A DNA stretch of 64,000 nt. It comes from Anolis carolinensis (taxonomy: Eukaryota). Positions 19,068 to 63,244 of this stretch are shown one piece after another. The stretch's first letter is position 1. Each line of letters starts with the position of its first letter. The DNA is taken from NCBI RefSeq assembly GCF_035594765.1, contig NC_085842.1, positions 19,506,782 to 19,570,781 of the forward strand. Direction: 5' to 3'. A model generated the notes under the pieces. That model searched no databases, had not been told where the DNA came from, and worked only from the letters and a program-made list of their open reading frames with translations. Both the position numbers and the translations under genes were made by a program.

Positions 19068-20188
19068 GTAACTGGAAGGGAAAAAATGCCTTTGCCAACC
19101 ACAGGAATCCTCATACTCAAATCTTTCCCAAACACGAAGAAGCCTGCATAGAAGAAAAATGTCCTGAAGAGATGGCCTGCATATGCACCAACTGTGGAAG
19201 ATGTTTTACCCCAAACACAATACATGTGTGTGATGAGAGAATGCAGCAGGAAGAGAACCACTTTGGATATGAAGTTTTGGTGAAAGGTGTTGATTGCAAA
19301 TTGCAGCATGAGAGATACCATATAGCAGAGAAAGCACACAAATGCCAGGAGTGTGGGAAATGTTTTGCTTCCAAGTCGCATCTTCGGCAACACCAGGCAA
19401 TCCACACAGGAGACAAACCATACAGCTGCCAAGAATGTGGGAAATGTTTTATTTCTACATCAGGACTCCTCAGACACCTGAGAACTCACACGGGAGAGAA
19501 ACCCTACAGATGCCAAATGTGTGGAAAATGTTTTGTTTCTAATTCAGTACTTCTGATCCACCAGAGAATCCACACAGGGGAAAAGCCATACAAATGCCAG
19601 GAATGTGGGAAATGTTATGCCCATCATTCAGGGCTTGTTGTCCACCAAGGAATGCACACAGGAGAGAAACCGCACAACTGCCAAGAATGTGGGAAGTGTT
19701 TTCATTCCCGATCAGGACTTCTCAAACACCAGAGAATCCACACAGGAGAGAAGCCATACAAATGCCAAGAGTGTGAGAAATGTTTTCTTTCCAAGTCATC
19801 TTTTGTGGATCACAAACGGGTTCACACAGGAGAGAAACCATTCAAATGCCAGGAGTGTGGGAAATGTTATGCCCGAAATTCAGTGCTTATTATCCACCTG
19901 AGAACCCACACAGGAGAAAAACCATACGGGTGCCAGGAGTGTGGGAAGTGTTTTAATTCCAAGCCAGAACTTTTGAATCACCAGAGAATCCACACCGGAG
20001 AGAAACCATATAAGTGCCAGGAGTGTGGGAAATGTTATGCCCGGAAACCAGATCTTGTCATTCACCAGAGAACCCACACAGGAGAGAAACCATACTCATG
20101 CGAGGAATGTGGAAAACGCTTTTCTTCCAAGTCATGTCTTGTCATCCATCAGAAAATCCATCAGAAATATAGTACATATAGTACATAA
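19068..20188 (+). CDS. ZNF gene A C2H2 zinc-finger exon (10 fingers in frame)
   Basis: Tandem CxxC...HxxxH with TGEKP linkers; acceptor TTATCAG|; 11th finger shifted out of frame by an insertion at 20161-20194. Confidence 0.93.
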
Positions 20189-20511
20189 AATCCACAAAGG
20201 AGAGGAAGAATACAAATGTGAAGATTGTGAAAAATCCTATGTTTCCAGGTCAGGACTTGTGAAACACAAGACAATGCATAAAGGAAAGGAACCATAGAAA
20301 AGCCTAGAGTTCTGCCCACAGTTGAGACCTTGTCACCCACCAGAGTCCACACAGGCAAAAAATGCTACAATTGCTTGGAGTGTGGGAAATGTTTTACTCA
20401 GAATTCAGCTCACAGGCAGCATAAAACAGTTCACACTGAAGAGAGCACTTTTTTGCCTTGAAAGCAGAGTAATTACTATATGAGAATTCACAGAGAAATC
20501 ACTGAATCCTA

Positions 20512-32801: not shown

Positions 32802-34290
32802 CAGGGGAAAATAGACACTCAAAATAATTACAGCATGGATATTTAGGAAATAAGGCATAACAATGAATAACCTGAAGCTTCCCAAAGCAGGTTTCTAGGG
32901 TGCTTACTCTCCAACCTTGTTCCTCAAGGCAGAGACAGGTGTGTTAACAACCAACATTGGGGGTCCAAAAGTAGGCACTGACCACTAAGACATAGCCAGT
33001 GTGGTGTAGTGGTTTGAAATTCAGAGACCAAGGTTCAAATCCTTACTCAGCCATGGAAACGCACTGGGAGACCCTGGGCAAGTCACACTTCCTCAATCTC
33101 AGAGAGCAGCAAGGCAAGGCCAGATCAGGGTTGTTGTATGTTTTCCAGGTTGTATCCTCTGATGATGCCTGCCATAGATGTTGGCAAAACGTCAGGAGAG
33201 AATACTTCTGGGACATGGCCATACAACCCGGAAAACATACAACAACGCTGCGATCCAGGCCATGAAAGCCTTCGACAACACAAGGCCAGATCCCCTCCCA
33301 ACATCAGCATTCAGGATTTAGGGACTCAACTTCACAAACTATAACCTCAAACAGAACTTAGTTTGCAAGAGTACAAAATGAAAGGACACAGGGCCAGACA
33401 TTAGAAAGCACTGCTTTCAAGAAAATCAACAGAACTACTGTATTTGTTGACACGTCAAAGAATATTCATGCCGTCACTCTCAACGCTGTTGTTGTGTAGC
33501 CTGCCTTTTGCATCTATAATATTATTCAGCCAGTCGGTAGAGGAGGGAGATAATTATTATCATTAAACTATGAGCCATATTTGATGTTATAAATGATTCA
33601 AATGCTGTATTTTACCATTTTATCCTTATTTGACTTCAGCTGAAAATTGGTTGACCAAAATAAAGGCTACTGACTGATGAAATATCCTTGCAAAATGTTA
33701 TTTCCTTAAGTGACTTGTAACAGCTTTTAGTGAAATACAATGAAAGTTTGACCTAACAGGAGAAAGATGAATTGGTCATCCCATGCTTTGTATCTACATT
33801 TTTGAAGAGGGCTCAATTTGGAGGAAACAGTAAAATGATGCAGACCAAAAGCAGCAAAGAAGTAGTAATGGAATACGTAGCTACTTTCAGCAAACTTAGA
33901 TCTCAGGGGCCAGATGCAGTGCTTCCAAGGAGACAGAAAACAGAATGAGTTTCCTTGCTGCCTGTCTAGAAAATGGGATCTAACCAGTTGATTCAACTCA
34001 CAGGGAAGGGAGTTCATAAGAAAGAACTTTACAGTGTTCAGAGAAAATCCACAGTGGGCTATTTTGCCTTGCATACCATCCTTTCAAGGATGTTTGAGTG
34101 GAAGGTTTATGAAATGTCAATGGTATGACTAACTGGCCCTCGTGGGCCTAATTAAAGGTATCAGTCAGAGGTTTTCTTGTAGACTCTGATACATTAAAAG
34201 CTCTGTTGTAAAAACAGATACTTTCCTCATGATGCATTTGTAATGTTTTCTCTTCTGTGTGAACTGTATGGTGCTACTTAACAACTGGAT

Positions 34291-36035
34291 TCAAAATAAG
34301 ACATTGTCCATACTCATGTCATGTGTATGGTTTATCTCCTCTGTGGATTCTCGGGTGGATTCCAAGTCCTGGCTTGGAAGGAAAACATCTTCCACACTCA
34401 TGGCGTTTCTGTGGTACTCCTCTTGTGTGGACTCTCCAGCGGCGGAGGTTAAGCTGCGGATTTTCAGTATAATGTTTTCCACGCTATTCGTATCCGGTTG
34501 CTTTCCCCTGTGGATTCTCTGGTGTTTGATGAGCCCTGACATGGAACCAAAACACTTAACACACTCCTGGCACTGGTATGGCTTCTCTCCGGTGTGGATC
34601 CTCTGGTGGACCACAAGGTCAGACCTGCGAATCCAGCCTTTCCCACACACCTGGCATTCATATGGTTTCTCCCCTGTGTGGGTTCTGTGGTGGATCACAA
34701 GTCCCGCCTTGGAAGTGAAACATTTTCCGCACTCTTGGCATATATACAGTTTATCTCTTGTGTGGACTTTCCGGTGGACGTGAAGGTGTGAAGTTTGGGT
34801 ATAACATTTGCCACATTCCTCACATTTGTATGGCTTCTCTCCTGTGTGGATTCTCTGGTGGATGACAAGGTCTGATTTGGAAGCAAAACATTTTGCGCAT
34901 ACCTGGCATTTATATGGCTTCTCTCCTGTGTGTACTCTATGGTGTTTCACAAGTTCTGATTTTGAAGCAAAGCATTTTTGACACACCTGGCATTCATACG
35001 GTTTCTCCCCTGTGTGGGTTCTCTGGTGGATCTCCAGGTATGATTTAGAAACAAAACATTTTTCACAATCTTGACATTTATATGGTTTCTCCCCTGTGTG
35101 AATTCTCTGGTGGATCACGAGTCCCGATGTGGAAGCAAAACATTTCCCACATTCCTGACACTTGTATAATTCCTCACTTGTGTGGACTCTCCGGTGGATG
35201 TGAAGGTGAGAAGACTGGGGATAACATTTTCCACAGTCCTGACATTTGTATGGTTTCTCCCCTGTGTGGATTCTCTGGTGGATCACAAGTTTTGACTTCG
35301 AAACAAAACATTTTACACAATATGGGCATTTGTACGGTTTCTCTCCTGTGTGGATTCTCTGGTGGATCACAAGGTCTGACTTGGATGCAAAACACTTCTC
35401 ACACTCTTGGCATTGGAACGGTTTCTCTCCGGTGTGGATCCTCTGGTGTTTCAGAAGTCCTGATTTGGAAGCAAAACACTTCACACACTCTTCACATTTG
35501 TAGGGTTTCTCCCCTGTGTGGATTCTCTGGTGGACAGACAGTTTTGACTTGGAAACAAAAGATTTTCCACACTCCTGGCATTTGTATGGTTTCTCCCCTG
35601 TTTGGATTCCTTGCGGGATCACAAAGTTTGACCCACAAGTACAATTTTCCCCACACACTGGGCACATGTATGGTATTCCTTCTGGGTCAATTCTTTGGTG
35701 GAAGAGAAAGTTTGGATCTGCAATAGAAAATGTTCCACCCTCCTGGTAATTGAATGATGCCTCTGCGGTATGGACTCCCTCGTGGCTATTGGGGAGAAAT
35801 TTGAGATCAACATCTTTCACCAAAAGTTCTCCATCACGGTTCTCTTCCAGCTGCATTCTCTCGTCACACACATGTATCATGTTTGGTGCAAAACATCTCC
35901 CACAGCTGGTGCATATGCAGGACATGTCTTCAGGGCATTTTTCTTCTGTGTGGACTGGTTCATCTTTGGGGAACACTGCATTCTGAGTAGGAGAATTCCC
36001 ATGGTTGGCAAAGGCATTATTCTCCTCCCAGTCAC
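34291..36035 (-). CDS. ZNF gene B C2H2 zinc-finger exon (13 intact fingers plus degenerate ones)
   Basis: Long open C2H2 array with TGEKPY linkers; acceptor TCTAGCAG|GT; model join(38065-38032,36035-34291) = 592 aa. Confidence 0.92.
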
Positions 36036-47130: not shown

Positions 47131-48473
47131 TTTTCTTTAGGTTTCCAACTGGACTTTTAAAATTACAATTATAAAGAAAGGGGCTGGAAGTAAAGGGTCA
47201 AAAAAGGAGGGGGGGGAAAACAAGGTGATTTTCTTTCCAAAAACAGAGTAAGTTTGTTATTGTACTATTGCACAACAAAATTAAATGCTTTTCCCAGCGC
47301 ACACCCAAACACACAATCCGCCACCACACAGCCCCCAATGTCACATCAGTGCAAAGCCACGGAGTTCAATATAGCCATAGCTCTAGGATAAAAGCTATCT
47401 CACAGTCTGTTTGTCCTTGCCTTTGTCACTCTGTACTGTCTCCCAGAGGGTAATAATTCAAAAAAAGATAATAGGTCCTTAAGAATCTTCCGAGCTTTCT
47501 TAAGACAGCTAAGCAGAGTAAGGGAGAGGAGAAACCAACAGGATCAAATGGGAGGAATAATGAAGAAAAACATCCCATTTAATTTTTCTTTAGAGTTGAC
47601 AGACTAAATAAGGGATGGAGCTCCCCAAAACAAAGAACACCTTCAGTCTCATTTTAAAAAATCAGCAATATTAGTTTCGTTATACAATTTTTAAAGATTG
47701 TAATTTCCCAACATGTCTCTTATATCAGCAGTACACCAAATCAAACTAACTTCACTTATCTTCGCCCTAAAACAATAATCACAAAATGTAAAAAACCACA
47801 ATAGTAAAAAATGTCTCAAAAGAGGTAAAGAATGGGCTATTCAGCTGCTTCCAGTGAACCCAAATCTCTGTAACCCAGTGGTCCCCAACCTTTGGGCCTC
47901 CAGGTGTTTTGGACTTCAGCTCCCACAGTTCCTCAGCTGACTGGGATCTGGGAGTTGAAGTCAAAAATACCTGGAAGCCCAAAGGTTGGGAAACACTGCT
48001 GTAATCAGATGCAGTGCCTCCAAGGAGGTAGAAAATGGAGCAAACTTGTTTGCTGCCCCTCTGGGATCTTAACCAGTGGATTCAACTCAAAGGAAGGCAA
48101 AATTCTGAAAATAAATGCAAGGAAAAACTTCCTACTGTTGAGAATGGAAGTTGATGCTTTAAATAGCATCCTCTTAGGAATGTCTTAGTGACGGATTTAT
48201 GGATTGAGAAAGATATGACTCGCTGGCACTTGGGGTCTAAATCAATGTAGGATTCAGTGATTTCTCTGTGGATTCTGATATAATAACTGCTCTGCTTTCA
48301 AGGGGAAAAAATCCTCAGTGCTCTTCTCAGTGTGAACTGTCTTATGCTGCCCGAGAGCTGAATTCTGGGTAAAACATGTCCCACACTCCTAGCAATTGTA
48401 GCATTTCTTGCCTGTGTGGACTCTGGTGGATGACCACTTTTCTATGGTTTCTATGGCAGAACTCTAGGCTTTT

Positions 48474-49741
48474 CTATGGTTCCTTTCCTTTATGCATTCT
48501 CTTGTGTTTCACAAGTCCTGACTTGGAAACATAGCATTTTTCACAATCCTCACATTTGTATTCTTCCTCTCCTTTGTGGATTTTCTGATGAATGACAAGA
48601 CATGACTTGGAAGAAAAGCGTTTTCCACATTCCTCGCATGAGTATGGTTTCTCTCCTGTGTGGGTTCTCTGGTGGATGACAAGATCTGGTTTCCGGGCAT
48701 AGCATTTCCCACACTCCTGGCACTTATATGGTTTTTCTCCTGTGTGGATTCTCTGGTGATTCCATAGTTCTGGCTTGGAATTAAAACATTTCCCACACTC
48801 CTGGCACCCGTACGGTTTTTCTCCTGTGTGGGTTCTCTGGTGGATGATAAGCACTGAATTTCGGGCATAACATTTCCCACACTCCTGGCATCTGAATGGT
48901 TTCTCTCCTGTGTGGACCCTTTTGTGGATCACAAATGATGACTTGGAAACAAAACATTTCTCACACTCCTGGCATTTGTATGGCTTCTCTCCTGTGTGGA
49001 TTCTCTGGTGTTTAAGTAGTCCTGACCTGGAATTAAAACACTTCCCACATTCTTGACAGTTGTACAGTTTCTTTCCTGTGTGGATTCCTTGGTGGACAAC
49101 AAGCACTGAATGTTGGGCATAACATTTCCCACATTCCTGGCATTTGTATGGCTTTTCCCCTGTGTGGATTCTCTGGTGGATCAGAAGTACTGAATTGGAA
49201 ACAAAACATTTCCCACACTTTTGGCATCTGTAAGGTTTCTCTCCCGTGTGGGTTCTCTGGTGTCTGAGGAGTCCAGATGTAGAATTAAAACACTTCCCAC
49301 ATTCTTGGCAGCTGTATGGTTTCTCTCCTGTGTGGATCACCTGGTGTTGCCGAAGATGTGACTTGGAAGCAAAGCATTTTCCACACTCCTGGCATCTGTA
49401 TGGTTTCTCTCCTGTGTGAATTATCTGGTGGATCACAAGGCGTGATTTGAAAGTAAAACATTTTCCACACTCCTGGCATTTGTGTGCTTTCTCTGCTATA
49501 TGGTATTCCTCGTGCTGCAATTTGAGATCAACACCTTTCATCGAAAGTTCATATCCAAAGTGGTTCTCTTCCTGCTGCATTCTCTCATCACACACATGCG
49601 TAATGTTTGGGGCAAAATATCTTCCACAGCTGGTGCATATGCAGGACATCTCTTCAGGACATTTTTCTTCCATGCAGGCTTCTTCGTGTTTGGGAATGTT
49701 TTGACAATGGTTGGCAAAGGCATTTTTTCCCTTCCAGTTAC
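48474..49741 (-). CDS. ZNF gene C C2H2 zinc-finger exon (12 fingers)
   Basis: Open C2H2 array; acceptor TTTTAGCAG|GT. Model join(52775-52362,51753-51651,51311-51253,50562-50436,49741-48474) = 656 aa. Confidence 0.93.
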
Positions 49742-51753: not shown

Positions 51754-52361
51754 CTGAAACAATTGTCAGGATTCAAGACAGGATTAGAAAGTGATGTACT
51801 TCCAAATGGCGGGATGTGTGTATGAAATTGACAGTGTAGCAGGCAGGGGCAAACTTTGATCCTCCAGGAGTTTTGGACTTCAACTCTCACAATTCCTAAC
51901 AGCCAGTAGTCTGTTAAGAATTGTGGGAGTTGAAGTCCAAAACACCCAGAGGGCCAAAGTTTGTCCATGCCTTGAGTAGAGTGAATCCATCCATCATTTC
52001 ACCCTCGCTCACCTCTAGAAAAAAAGGGTATCATGCTTTAGAGGGGGAAGGGCAGACTTGGATGTGTCAAGGAACTACAACCACACTAGCAAATCCACCT
52101 CTGCTTCCATGGCAACCAAAAGATGTGGCATTCCCTTTAGAAACAAAACAAATAAGGAGTACGCATCTTACTTGAAGATTCTGAGATTGTGAATCCACTT
52201 CAAATTAAGAGGAGCCTTGTTTTCTTAAGATTATACATTACAACAGAGATGCAACAAATATCCCAGTGGCTCTTGAGAGTGGCAGTAGTAGGAACAGAAG
52301 AGATTGAAGAACAAGTGAACAGGGGAAGATGTCCTGAACCTTGCAGATGAAATGCACTTAC

Positions 52362-52775
52362 CTGCTCTTTTTCATCCTGCTCCTCTGCTTCCTTACTCAG
52401 GAGGAATCCTTCTGCCAGGGCCATGGCCTGGGAACATGTCTCTGCTCCACACTCCCTGACCCAGCTTGACATCTTTGGTGGGAGGAGGGTCAGGAACTGC
52501 TCCAGCACCACCAGGTCCAGCATCTGTTTTTTTGTGTGTTTTTCTGGCTTCAGCCACTGGCGACAGAGATGGTGGAGTTGGCTGCAGATCTCCCGGGGCC
52601 ACTCCACCTCCTCACAGGAGAACTGACTAAAATGCTGAGGCTGTATGTCTGAGTTGCCAAGGTTATCACCCAGGAATTTGAGCATCGTTCTTGCCCAGAA
52701 TCTTCTATTACTTTCAACACATGAGCCCTGAACGACTTGTCCTGCTTCAGATCCAGCTGAGTCCGATCTGTCCAT
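52362..52775 (-). CDS. ZNF gene C (SCAN-KRAB-C2H2, ZKSCAN-like), SCAN exon
   Basis: SCAN motif [26 protein letters not shown]; donor CAG|GTAAGT. Confidence 0.92.
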
Positions 52776-53729
52776 CTTTCAATCGATGTCCAATGGAGGT
52801 ACCAATGCAAACCTCCTGGTTATGGCTCCTCCTTCCCTCTCAGGGTCAAGAATCCCTCATCAGTCATTGTGCCAAAACTCTGTAAAGCCAAGAGATTGCA
52901 TTAACAATTGTTGCACTCTGTAAGCAAGAACAAATAGGGACTTTTACAACTGAGAACAGTCTCTCTTCCTTGAAGGAAAGGTCCTTGGTGATCAGGAAAT
53001 CATTTTCACCTGAGACCCATGAAGGAAGGCCTTGAGTTATTTGAGAATCAAAGCATTGTGGCCCATCATTCCCACTCATCTCTCTAATTTCCCCCAGCCT
53101 CGCCTTCCTTCTCTTGGCCTTCCACTGACCTCCCATCTCTGTCTCACCCTTCGTATTGACCTCAGCCCCATCCACACTGCTGCCTCATGAATAATTCTGG
53201 AGTTTCATTCTTTTTGCTAAAACTACTTAACACTTAAAAAAACACCTTTGCTTGTATGGTTTTAAGTTGTTTCCACCCTATTGTGACCTCAAGATGAATC
53301 TTTCATGAAGTTCATTTTTGTCACTAGCCATTGTTTGACATGTAAACAACAAAAATGATACCACACGGGGTCTTTTTCAAATCACAAACACATGGACTCA
53401 CATTTTAAAATAGGCTTTCTGAAATACAATTTAACAGTCATTCTAACTTTAAAATGACATTACTCCATCCAAAAAGACTGCTGTTGGTTGTTGTGAGCTG
53501 TAAAGTCATTTCTGACCTTTGGTAATCCTAAATTTATGCTTCCACAGGGTTTTCTTAGCAAGATTTTTGCAGTGGGGTAGACTGCCTTCCAATGAGAGAA
53601 TGTGATGGCCCAGCACACCCAGTAGGTTTCAAGTGAAAGCGGATTTGAACCCAGATGTTCAAGCCTTTATATCAAATTGGTTCTTTTTGTGGCATGACCT
53701 GCCAGAATAGATCCAACAGCTATAGATAG

Positions 53730-59308: not shown

Positions 59309-59626
59309 GTGTTGTTGAAGGCTTTCATGGCCAGGATCACAGGGTTGTTGTATGTCTTTCGGGCTGTGTGGCCATGTTCCAGAAGTATTCTCTCCTGACG
59401 TTTCGCCCACATCTATGGCAGGCATCCTCAGAGGTTGTGAGGTATGGAAAAACTAAGCAAGGTATGTTTATATTCCTGGACTTCCCACAGATATATATAA
59501 ACATTCCTTGCTTAGTTTTTCCATACCTCACAACCTCTGAGGATGCCTGCCATAGATGTGGGCGAAACATCAGGAGAGAATACTTCTGGAACATGGCCAC
59601 ACAGCCCGAAAGACATACAACAACCC
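59309..59626. mobile_element. Penelope-like palindromic fragment
   Basis: ~130-bp near-identical inverted arms. Confidence 0.85.
59394..59434 (-). ncRNA. minimal type I hammerhead ribozyme (Penelope-associated)
   Basis: Intact core on the minus strand within the palindrome arm. Confidence 0.65.
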
Positions 59627-60270
59627 CCTTTTTCAAAATAACTCATAGGTTCCTCCAAAGCTACGTAGTCATATTTCTCTTGCCCATCTTTCCAATTGTA
59701 GAACTTTATACTACCCAATACTTCCTTCTGACAGTTGATTCCTTATCTCCCCTAGATTTTTCGTTTTTGATTCCCAATCTTTTAATTTCATAATTTCTTT
59801 TTCTTTAAATTCTCTTTCTAACTCCCTTTTGAGATTCATTGGGAATTTTTTTGTAATTAACACCGGTGTTAATGGGGAGATCGGTGGTAATAGTTTTTCT
59901 TCATACTTGGTCCAGATTTCTAATATATTTTTTAAAAAGGAGTTCCCTATTTTATTATACAATTTCTTCTCTGAATTCCTGGTTTTCCCTATGAAGAAAA
60001 TATTCTCTAATTTCATATCTATATCTTTACTCTCTTCTTCTAACCATTCTAAATCCTCTTGTCCTATAATCCCTTCAATAATATACCTTAATTGATTTGC
60101 CATATAGTATGGGTTTAAGTCTGGTATTCCCAGACCTCCCTTCTTTTGTATTTTATACCATTTTTCTTTATTTATTCTAGCCCTTTTATTCCCATTACAA
60201 AAGGTATTTATCATATTCTGCCAATTTGTAATTTCACCAGTTGAAATGTTAATAGGTAGCATTCTAAACA
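59627..60270 (-). mobile_element. L1-clade LINE ORF2 fragment (post-RT region)
   Basis: FRMLPI...KGGLGIPDLNPYYMA motif; A-rich sense strand. Confidence 0.8.
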
Positions 60271-61067
60271 AAAAAAAAAAAAAGCTATGTAGTCATAACT
60301 TTAAATTAATCCGCTATAGTCCCATGTGAGTTGAAACTGTAGTGAAAAGTCTTTGGAAGTACGTGATGATCAGGAATGTGATCCGGAAAACAACAAGGGT
60401 TCCTGGGTGCTTTTATCCTTGTTTCAGGAAAAGTATCCCTTCTTCAGGTTGCTTGCTTCATGTATTTGAACTAGTGTCTTCAGAAGATTTTATAGGCTAT
60501 ATTTAAAGAGACAACATAATAGATATGTTATACTAGCGCCCAGTAGCAATAAACAATTGATAATCTTTTAACAACAATTAAAAAAAGAGAAAACACTTCC
60601 TCTGGAAAGGCCTACAACAAGGACAGAAAACTGGTAGCTGTTGATCCTCAGGTGTGTTAGCAGTGTCGGTCAAAATATGTAGCAAGTGGTTCTTATTTTC
60701 CCACCCAAATGAAGACATGTTTGTGTATGTACAAACTCGTGATGAAAATGAGCATGCACATACACAAGCAAAACTCCTGGCTGGGAAGAGAGAGATGAGT
60801 TATGCCCATAACTGTACAGCTCTCTTTTTGAAGCCAACCAGAGAAGGAAAGCTTACCACTGAACCTCTATTACTGTCAAGAAGTTCTGTTTAATGTTCAA
60901 TTTAAAACCATTAGATTTGGTCCTGCTACCCTCTGAGACAGCAGAGAATGAGCTCCTCTGTAGCAATCCTTGAGGTGTTTAAAAAGAGCAGCCATGTCAC
61001 TCTGCAATGTTCTCTTCACCAGCTGAACAGACCCAGCTCCCATAATCTGTCTTTGTATGTTTAATTG

Positions 61068-62828
61068 TCAGGCTCCTGCTAGTTCCGGAGTTATAATGTT
61101 CCTAGAACAACCACAATCCACGAATGCCTTGCAGGTGGCCCGATTCTCTAGCCCCGAGATGCAGATTGGCACTACTATCATGCGTTTGTCCCGACTCACC
61201 AGTTTTTCCGAAGATTCTGGGGCTTGCACCTCCTCCTCCGCACGCCTTCCGGTTGCTGGCTTGGGTTTTGAGGGTTTTGGCGGCTCCCCCTTCCGTGCCC
61301 AACATTCTGCTGCTCGATGGCCCGTTTTCCCACACACAAAGCATCCCGGTTTAGGTTTGTTGTCGTCTCCTCTGGGGGGAATCCCCGGCCTCCCTCCGTA
61401 CCTTTCCTGCTTCCTCGTTTCTCCTCGGCCTCTCGCCACCGGTCTCTGCTGGCCGCTGCTGCCCCTGAAGCGCTTCACTTGGGCCAGGGTGGACTCAACG
61501 CGCCCCGCTAGTTGAATCCATCCCTGGAGCGTTTCGGGGTCATCTCTGTGCGCTGCCCAGCTGAAAACTTCGGGGCGTAGTCCCTCTTTAAATATTTCCA
61601 CTTTGGTCACTTCAGACCACTCTGGTACCCTTTCCGCGAGGTGGAGGAATTCCTCTGCGTACTCGGGCACCGTTTTGTCCCTCTGCTTTATTCCTTTAAA
61701 CTGGTCTCGAGCCCTCAATTGCTCTAGCCGGTCTCTGAACCGGTTTTCCAGGGCGGCGAGGAAGCGGGGCACCGACCTCAGGCATGGGTCGCGTCTGGCA
61801 TGTAGTTGCACATACCAGCTTGCAGCTCCTCTCTTTAGTGTGTTGCCGATGGCTCGAACCCTGCTTGCTTCGGAGGGGAATGTGTGTGCATTGTCTTCCA
61901 TGTATCCTCTGATGCTAATTAGAAAAAAGTTCAGTTCAGCTGATTCCCCTCCGTATTCTAGTTTGAGATCTTCCCTTCTTGGCATCCATTCTGCGGCCCG
62001 TTGATGCTGTCTGGGAGGCATGGGGAAGGGTTGCATCGGGTTTCCTCGGACGGCCCCTTGGAACACGCCGCGCCCCACTCCGGTGGTCATTCTGCGCGGC
62101 TCCCGAAATCCTGCCGCCGCTGTCGGCCCTTCCACCCATCCGCATACGGGCCTCGCTGTAGCCCCCGCATCTCGCCTTTCCTCGTCGTACGGCACATCCT
62201 CCTCCTCCTCCTGGATCTCCTGCTCCTCTCCGCCTTCGTCTGCAAATCCACTGGACCCGATCCCTGGCCCCAGTGGTCTTTCCACCCCGACGCCCATTCG
62301 GGGGGTTGGGAGCTCTGTTGGAGATGGCGGCCTCAGAGTTCCCAGAGCTCGCTGGCGCTCCACTTCGCGTGCCATTCTGTCTCGGAACTCCAGCTCCTGC
62401 CAGTATTCCTCATCTCCCTCGTCCCTCGCTGCCACGGGACTCTGCGTTGATGCTCGCTGGCCCCTCTGGCTCCAATCTCCTTCTTTACTTGGCTCTCTCT
62501 CGGCGCCATATCGGATGGGCTCCTTTTGGAGATTCTCTTCCAATAGTGGCACCAACCTCCCCACGGTTTCCGACAGCCTGGATAAATTAGTTTCCAGGAT
62601 GGATAACCGCAGGGCCACGGTCTCCGGCATGCTTCCTCCAGATCCCCAACTGGTTTCTGCAGCCGCAGAGACGCCTCTTCCTCCCCTGGGAATCCTCTGG
62701 GTCACGCCGTTCGGCCTGGGGTACCCCGTAGAGGAAGCTATGGCTTGCAGCGTCTCTCCTCCCTTCGGCCGGGCCCCTTGCAAAGGCCTCCCTGCTCCAT
62801 TTGGGCTTTGATCTCCTTCTTCACTCAT
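61068..62828 (-). CDS. gag: retrotransposon Gag (capsid + CCHC nucleocapsid) fused to a truncated aspartic protease, 586 aa
   Basis: ATG at 62828 (MSEEGDQ); PEG10/RTL-like capsid (YGGESAELNFF...GAASW...QRDKTVPEYAEEF...FKEGL); CFVCGKTGHRAAEC knuckle; AFVDCGCSRNII protease motif. Confidence 0.88.
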   Translation of the reverse strand: MSEEGDQSPNGAGRPLQGARPKGGETLQAIASSTGYPRPNGVTQRIPRGGRGVSAAAETSWGSGGSMPETVALRLSILETNLSRLSETVGRLVPLLEENLQKEPIRYGAEREPSKEGDWSQRGQRASTQSPVAARDEGDEEYWQELEFRDRMAREVERQRALGTLRPPSPTELPTPRMGVGVERPLGPGIGSSGFADEGGEEQEIQEEEEDVPYDEERRDAGATARPVCGWVEGPTAAAGFREPRRMTTGVGRGVFQGAVRGNPMQPFPMPPRQHQRAAEWMPRREDLKLEYGGESAELNFFLISIRGYMEDNAHTFPSEASRVRAIGNTLKRGAASWYVQLHARRDPCLRSVPRFLAALENRFRDRLEQLRARDQFKGIKQRDKTVPEYAEEFLHLAERVPEWSEVTKVEIFKEGLRPEVFSWAAHRDDPETLQGWIQLAGRVESTLAQVKRFRGSSGQQRPVARGRGETRKQERYGGRPGIPPRGDDNKPKPGCFVCGKTGHRAAECWARKGEPPKPSKPKPATGRRAEEEVQAPESSEKLVSRDKRMIVVPICISGLENRATCKAFVDCGCSRNIITPELAGA

Positions 62829-62882
62829 TATCACTTCACTGCGAATTCCGCAGGAGGGTGAGAACAGGATTCTCGACTTAAA

Positions 62883-63244
62883 TGTCAGGCTCACTTCAAA
62901 GGACCAGTCTGAACGCAGATCAAAGATAGCTGCTCTCAAATCCAATCTTTATTGAAGAATACATGACTTTGGAAAAGTCGAGAATGACCTAATGTTTACA
63001 TACACTCAATTTTATCACTTCTGATTCAACGTAATACCACACGCAAATATCATCATCAAATCCCACCCCCTGGATCACATTACTACCATTCCCACACACT
63101 ATATCAATTATAATTGTTTATACTTTCGAGCCTGAGTTCCCAGGCTCATTTTATCTTCTCCCGCCAGGTGCTTGCAGGATTATTTATGTTATGAAGTCAG
63201 ATTCAGGGCTTGGAAATTCAGCCCTGGGATCTGGCTCCATGACA
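62883..63244 (-). repeat. 5' LTR (362 bp)
   Basis: TGTCA...TGACA termini; GATAAAA at 63016-63010, Inr-like TCATTCT with A at 62985, AATAAA at 62953-62948. Confidence 0.85.

Follow-up and report, generated by a model that had tools for sequence, protein, structure and literature searches.

In the fission-yeast retrotransposon Tf1, the first 11 nucleotides of the RNA pair with the primer-binding site, and RNase H cuts between nucleotides 11 and 12 to give the primer (PMC7175516). In Tf1 and Tf2 of Schizosaccharomyces pombe and in Tj1 of S. japonicus, this 11-nt site lies just past the 5' LTR and complements the predicted start of the RNA. The leader of Tf1 requires three duplexes, which together form a "pretzel" (bioRxiv 10.1101/2022.12.06.519325). 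Self-priming of the Tf1 kind has been extended by inference to the whole Tf1/sushi group, vertebrates included (PMC4600332, PMC6317226), and the V-clade vertebrate chromoviruses, such as sushi-ichi and the Amn-ichi element of the green anole, have its signature (PMC2774666). Further related work is found in PMC3601003 and PMC11011659. In the literature found, self-priming is shown in fission yeast and stands as an inference for vertebrate elements. Our search, which covered few subscription papers, found no report of how anole elements are primed, nor of 6-bp target duplications in the Tf1/sushi group.

The window, the whole stretch of 64,000 nucleotides of Anolis carolinensis DNA that was analysed, contains an element with the same arrangement. 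On the minus strand, ATTCTCGACTT is located at 62985-62975 inside the LTR, the LTR ends in ...TGACA at 62883, and a TTT spacer is followed by AAGTCGAGAAT at 62879-62869. The preliminary description had claimed an 11-nt site, 3 nt past the LTR, exactly complementary to a word of the LTR, and its coordinates were borne out; when the LTR was shuffled 3000 times with its dinucleotides preserved, a complement of at least 11 nt to the post-LTR bases arose once. The GATAAAA at 63016-63010 (-31 to -25) and the TCATTCT around 62985 were also present as described. Like Tf1, Tf2 and Tj1, the window family has no tRNA site, a predicted inner duplex adjoining the primer-binding site and the Ty3/gypsy domain order, and it shares a single ORF with Tf1 and Tf2. 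However, the Tf1 integrase carries a chromodomain that is missing in the window family, while the gag of the window family has a CCHC knuckle, which the fission-yeast elements lack (bioRxiv 10.1101/2022.12.06.519325). The third pretzel duplex is weak or absent in comparison with Tf1, and the window family is known from sequence alone. The features of the window copy are collected in Table 1.

Table 1. Features of the internally deleted element in the window (window coordinates)
Feature	Position	Strand	Evidence
5' target-site duplication, 6 bp, ATTAAA	63245..63250	(-)	Identical word beyond the other end
5' LTR, 362 nt, TGTC...GACA	62883..63244	(-)	96-98% identity to both LTRs of 20/20 relatives
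Weak TATA-like box at -31	63009..63016	(-)	Perfect TATAAAAA at the equivalent place in sister subfamilies
Predicted self-primer, predicted RNA nt 1-11, from the A of the initiator-like TCATTCT	62975..62985	(-)	Complement and covariation
Predicted inner stem, 5' strand; partner is the LTR end, 62887-62884	62964..62967	(-)	Consensus fold, two-sided change
Predicted conserved R-U5 stem, 5' strand; partner 62899-62894; overlaps the poly(A) signal	62952..62957	(-)	Consensus fold, columns 71-76 with 133-138
Poly(A) signal AATAAA at +33	62948..62953	(-)	Motif position
9-mer complementary to 62814-62806; pair not conserved	62917..62925	(-)	Folds of relatives
Primer-binding site, 3 nt past the LTR, exact complement of 62985-62975	62869..62879	(-)	Sequence
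Candidate third duplex, 5 bp, with LTR 62938-62934; uncertain	62859..62863	(-)	10/14 clade rows
gag (capsid, CCHC knuckle) and start of protease, cut off at the deletion joint	61068..62828	(-)	Domain matches
3' LTR remnant, final 10 nt, fused to the protease region via a 4-nt microhomology	61066..61075	(-)	Joint unique in the genome
3' target-site duplication, 6 bp, ATTAAA	61060..61065	(-)	Equals the 5' flank

The window copy is an internally deleted Ty3/gypsy element (63244-61066, minus strand) with the 6-bp duplication on both sides, a deletion that the preliminary description does not mention. Its LTR limits (63244-62883) were set by comparison with the fetched two-LTR relatives (20/20), and the frame from 62828 gives Ty3/gypsy capsid and CCHC matches. 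Approximately 3.5 kb is absent, comprising most of pol, the polypurine tract and most of the 3' LTR. The deletion joint is unique in the genome, so the deleted form was rejected as a mobile non-autonomous family. The window copy is a one-off deletion that took place after insertion; it is dead and can neither move alone nor use self-priming, because most of pol, the polypurine tract and nearly all of the 3' LTR were lost once it was in place. As the mechanism is already known and expected for the Tf1/sushi group and the window copy is dead, the surprise for a specialist is small. The element is set within a cluster of C2H2 zinc-finger-like 84-nt arrays and a SCAN-domain exon (window 19300-20400, 34200-35800, 48400-49700 and 52200-52780), and two of the arrays form a 94% inverted duplicate. 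At window 59340-59640, a short interspersed repeat is present twice in opposite orientations, and the two copies form a long palindrome.

The window family itself is young and abundant. The search of the 1.85 Gb genome gave 1954 candidates, and the 40 that were scored were all 98-100% identical; the exact pattern of LTR end plus primer site had 602 genome matches. All 20 fetched relatives had two LTRs of 361-367 nt, with a difference of 0-1 base between the LTRs of a pair. Nineteen were 5.67-5.68 kb long and one was 5.02 kb, a single open frame of 1642-1646 codons was found in 18 of them, and an exact 5- or 6-bp target duplication in 17-18. Pfam matches in two full-length frames gave the domain order gag-PR-RT-RH-IN with no chromodomain, and the best solved relative was the Ty3 RT. 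With its paired TG...CA LTRs, target duplication and domain order, the window family is a Ty3/gypsy LTR retrotransposon. The polyprotein is 98-99% identical to the UniRef "Gypsy retrotransposon integrase-like protein 1" of Anolis carolinensis, a cluster of 160 member sequences; proteins of the family are already present in databases, under names that are silent on priming. Gmr1-like gypsy elements have an inverted pol order, with the integrase ahead of RT. A Gmr1-like identity was rejected because the integrase is not before RT in the window family. The polypurine tract just before the 3' LTR is pyrimidine-interrupted and has CCA at its end (L031-L050). In one case (L092), an element is directly followed by a second copy of its own LTR and 1 kb of gag, as a 1391-nt repeat with 99.9% identity.

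The preliminary description placed the element in the Tf1/sushi lineage on the strength of its self-complementary site. The lineage was supported by our tree, but the site alone is insufficient evidence for it, because self-priming has also been predicted for the plant TAR copia elements (PMC6317226), and the placement of the window family therefore rests on the tree. The quick IQ-TREE tree contained 67 RT-RNase H pieces, of which 58 were hand-picked for taxon spread from 120 listed homologs and 9 were genome copies. Three nested groups hold the window family: a squamate clade (support 100), a vertebrate group around it (85-89) and, outermost, a branch of fungi and vertebrates (100). The RT phylogeny that the preliminary description had named as a check thus puts it in the vertebrate/fungal chromovirus cluster. 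The outermost branch was separate from the plant and algal rows with a support of 100, in a tree built from close relatives, with neither a Tf1 or sushi-ichi reference nor a non-chromovirus animal outgroup. A fungal and vertebrate branch of this kind is the Tf1/sushi group, or Fungi/Vertebrates cluster (PMC2774666, bioRxiv 10.1101/2022.12.06.519325). The V-clade chromoviruses lie on the same RT branch, judged by the taxa of the neighbours (fish, amphibian and squamate chromodomain elements).

Within the anole genome, sister families C and D keep a chromodomain match, of E 1e-11 in D and below the cut-off in C (E 1.5e-4); they have two frames and 5-bp duplications. In contrast, the clade of families A, F, B and H is without a chromodomain (A, F and B scanned), has a fused frame and makes mostly 6-bp duplications. 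None of the three scanned families gave a chromodomain match, their frame ends 9 residues past an SH3-like module, and where it is intact it is one fused gag-pol frame. The window family was thus not filed with the chromodomain-bearing chromovirus type (sushi-ichi, Amn-ichi), which it does not resemble in this domain; the chromodomain is usual, not universal, in chromoviruses (bioRxiv 10.1101/2022.12.06.519325). Target duplications in the A, F, B and H clade are mostly of 6 bp and in some cases of 5 bp (L031-L050, L075-L108, L146-L185). The 6-bp form was counted in 12-13 of the 20 relatives and in 32 of the 40 copies of the variant set, where two had 5 bp, one had no duplication and five were not parsed.

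Because the RT-RNase H tree puts the family with the vertebrate and fungal chromoviruses, self-priming of the Tf1/sushi type is very probably its mechanism, and we infer the start, the cut and the priming step. The LTR word would be the first 11 nt of the element RNA, and the 5' end of the RNA would fold back onto the primer-binding site after the LTR. The RNase H of the element would cut off the primer after nucleotide 11, as in fission-yeast Tf1, and the 11-nt fragment would prime minus-strand DNA without a tRNA.

Covariation of the two 11-mers, which the preliminary description had named as a check, was found both between families and within the window family. Three divergent anole proteins served as queries, and the 40 fetched stretches were examined together with two family-A copies, 42 in all. 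Thirty were resolved automatically; the others were dropped for having no RT match (2), no LTR pair (6), a rearrangement (1) or an ambiguous LTR end (3), and two of the three ambiguous ends, read by hand, match too. Compared with the window family, the resolved elements have RT identities of 54-100%. In 29 of these 30 there is an exact complement of 11-13 nt that begins 1-3 nt past the LTR and pairs with a word lying 99-108 nt ahead of the end of the LTR; the 30th has one G-U pair. Control internal 30-mers reached equal length in 0-1 of 200 draws; for the G-U copy, whose exact run is shorter, 20 of 200 draws did so. Across the other families and the within-family variants there are nine different primer words, each matched at its own site. 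In a 12-row alignment, all 132 cells pair, a number that counts sequences and not evolutionary events, and 4 of the 11 pairs change on both sides, while slid controls pair at 18-48%.

The +1 position at 62985, the A of the word, is predicted from position and from the TATA and initiator spacing. In all 12 representatives the word starts at an A after a pyrimidine, if the family with a 13-nt complement is read from one base inside it. A perfect TATAWAWR was located at -30/-31 in six of the 12, and in two more the best match, with one mismatch, is there; the other four, the window among them, have no TATA at -30 that stands out as the best. The perfect TATA box of sister subfamilies, 30-31 nt ahead of the word, supports +1 at 62985. 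It may be that self-priming is right and the start is not at 62985, so that an internal piece serves as primer or the word comes in trans from the RNA of another copy. This would fit the weak TATA of the window, which has two mismatches to TATAWAWR against four better matches elsewhere in the LTR, one of them at -17, and the 13-nt complement that extends one base beyond the predicted A. We regard it as very unlikely, since the complement otherwise stops at that A in every representative and the TATA spacing of -30/-31 recurs in lineages with differing U3 sequences. With a start at 62985, the start sites of several hundred promoters would be predicted to the base, and ordinary 5'-end sequencing could put the vertebrate case to the test. 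Downstream, AATAAA or AGTAAA is present at +33 to +39 in 11 of the 12 representatives, with AGTAAA in families B and H. In assembled contigs of seven runs guessed to be RNA, depth falls near 62930, the expected poly(A) site, in one run and not in the others, and this pattern was given no weight.

Folding of the RNA from 62985 gave a single long hairpin with both words paired at its foot (z -2.5, reached by 6 of 200 shuffles), and the probability of the primer duplex was 0.91-0.98 in 14/14 folds. Two further stems come out of the 12-row consensus fold: an inner one at the end of the LTR, and one that overlaps the poly(A) signal. Two-sided changes occur in 8 of the 30 consensus pairs, four of them outside the primer duplex, some of which the alignment may account for. 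For the inner R-U5 fold, 13 of 15 leaders give z of -1.9 to -3.6, and in the other two it is weak. From folding and covariation, we predict that the 103 nt of R-U5 make up a single long hairpin, which the primer duplex closes and in which part of the poly(A) signal is paired. The covarying R-U5 stem that overlaps this signal (62957-62894) might mask it at the 5' LTR. For a third duplex between leader and LTR, the energy was nominally below shuffles in 2 of 15 leaders. The 5-bp candidate, picked post hoc, has three different words in 10 of the 14 clade rows and is absent in four. In these models, the central and inner duplexes of the pretzel are supported in the window family.

The same folds decided a further claim of the preliminary description, a 9-nt complementarity between U5 and the start of gag. 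It exists where it was placed, CTTTGATCT (62925-62917) being the complement of AGATCAAAG (62814-62806), but it is probably a chance match and is lost in most relatives. As a conserved element this duplex was rejected: the 9-mer is found in 3 of 14 folded leaders and an 8-mer in one, close subfamilies break it with no compensating change, its length is also reached by 13-15 of 300 shuffles, and in the folds the same bases pair within the R-U5 hairpin.

A real pairing could also have a different role, in packaging, dimerisation or translation or in poly(A) control, with priming by a host RNA or in some other way. The duplex does close a long hairpin covering the poly(A) signal, and on the sequence evidence covariation establishes pairing rather than priming. 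Nevertheless, the paired word lies exactly at the obligatory primer position, 1-3 nt past the LTR, in 29/30 elements, and it varies freely from one family to the next, as it could not with a host primer, so we give this reading very little weight, even less than a displaced start. Priming by a tRNA or tRNA fragment, with a coincidental LTR match, is scarcely credible: the host set is partial and internal matches of 8 nt exist, but there is neither a TGG start nor a 3'-end match, and it is contradicted by the nine different words, all of which have their match in their own LTR. In agreement with the preliminary description, which had reported no TGG-type tRNA site and suggested a comparison with host tRNA 3' ends, no match of at least 4 nt to a tRNA 3' end with CCA was found for eight post-LTR segments among 38 distinct tRNAs with 22 anticodons. 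The 30 loci behind this partial set were taken from an Rfam search for tRNAs (51 matches, 63 scored), and the best internal match to the segments was 8 nt.

Self-priming by the LTR word, which we prefer, gains from variation inside the window family. Four site variants were present among the first 100 matches listed, and the RT of two of the four is 99% identical. In 40 copies chosen by variant, and so not at random, the own site is exactly complemented in 38; one copy has an A-C mismatch and one a G-U pair, and in the latter both LTRs differ while the site has stayed as it was. Of the 30 closest copies, all 28 that could be parsed match, and two were not parsed. The anole genome therefore offers unusually clean comparative support, with hundreds of young copies and matched two-sided changes within one family.

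We hypothesize that the primer site may be rewritten from the primer at each copying round, by analogy with tRNA-primed elements. In these elements, the plus-strand DNA ends in the site sequence copied from the primer. A plus-strand DNA step at the primer site has been described for them (PMC7175516). If the site is rewritten, a matched change of both words would be easy. On this basis we tentatively suggest, with rather less than even confidence, that the clade is a still living branch of the self-priming Tf1/sushi group, without a chromodomain and with 6-bp cuts, and that in it the primer leads and the site follows. If true, site rewriting would explain four perfectly matched primer/site variants in one family whose RT differs by only 1% between two of them, and the family would offer a natural test, at the scale of populations, of self-priming in an amniote. 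One copy has the pattern predicted by this order of events; a descendant of it with the matching new site was not found among the first 100 of 200 matches listed. The haplotypes of 70 copies do not separate models with and without site rewriting. Copies between states were observed in both forms: in L176 both LTR primer words are changed and the site is old, which is the predicted pattern, and in L159 and L106 the site alone is changed. Mosaic LTR/leader haplotypes in L100, L177 and L184 point to recombination between subfamilies.
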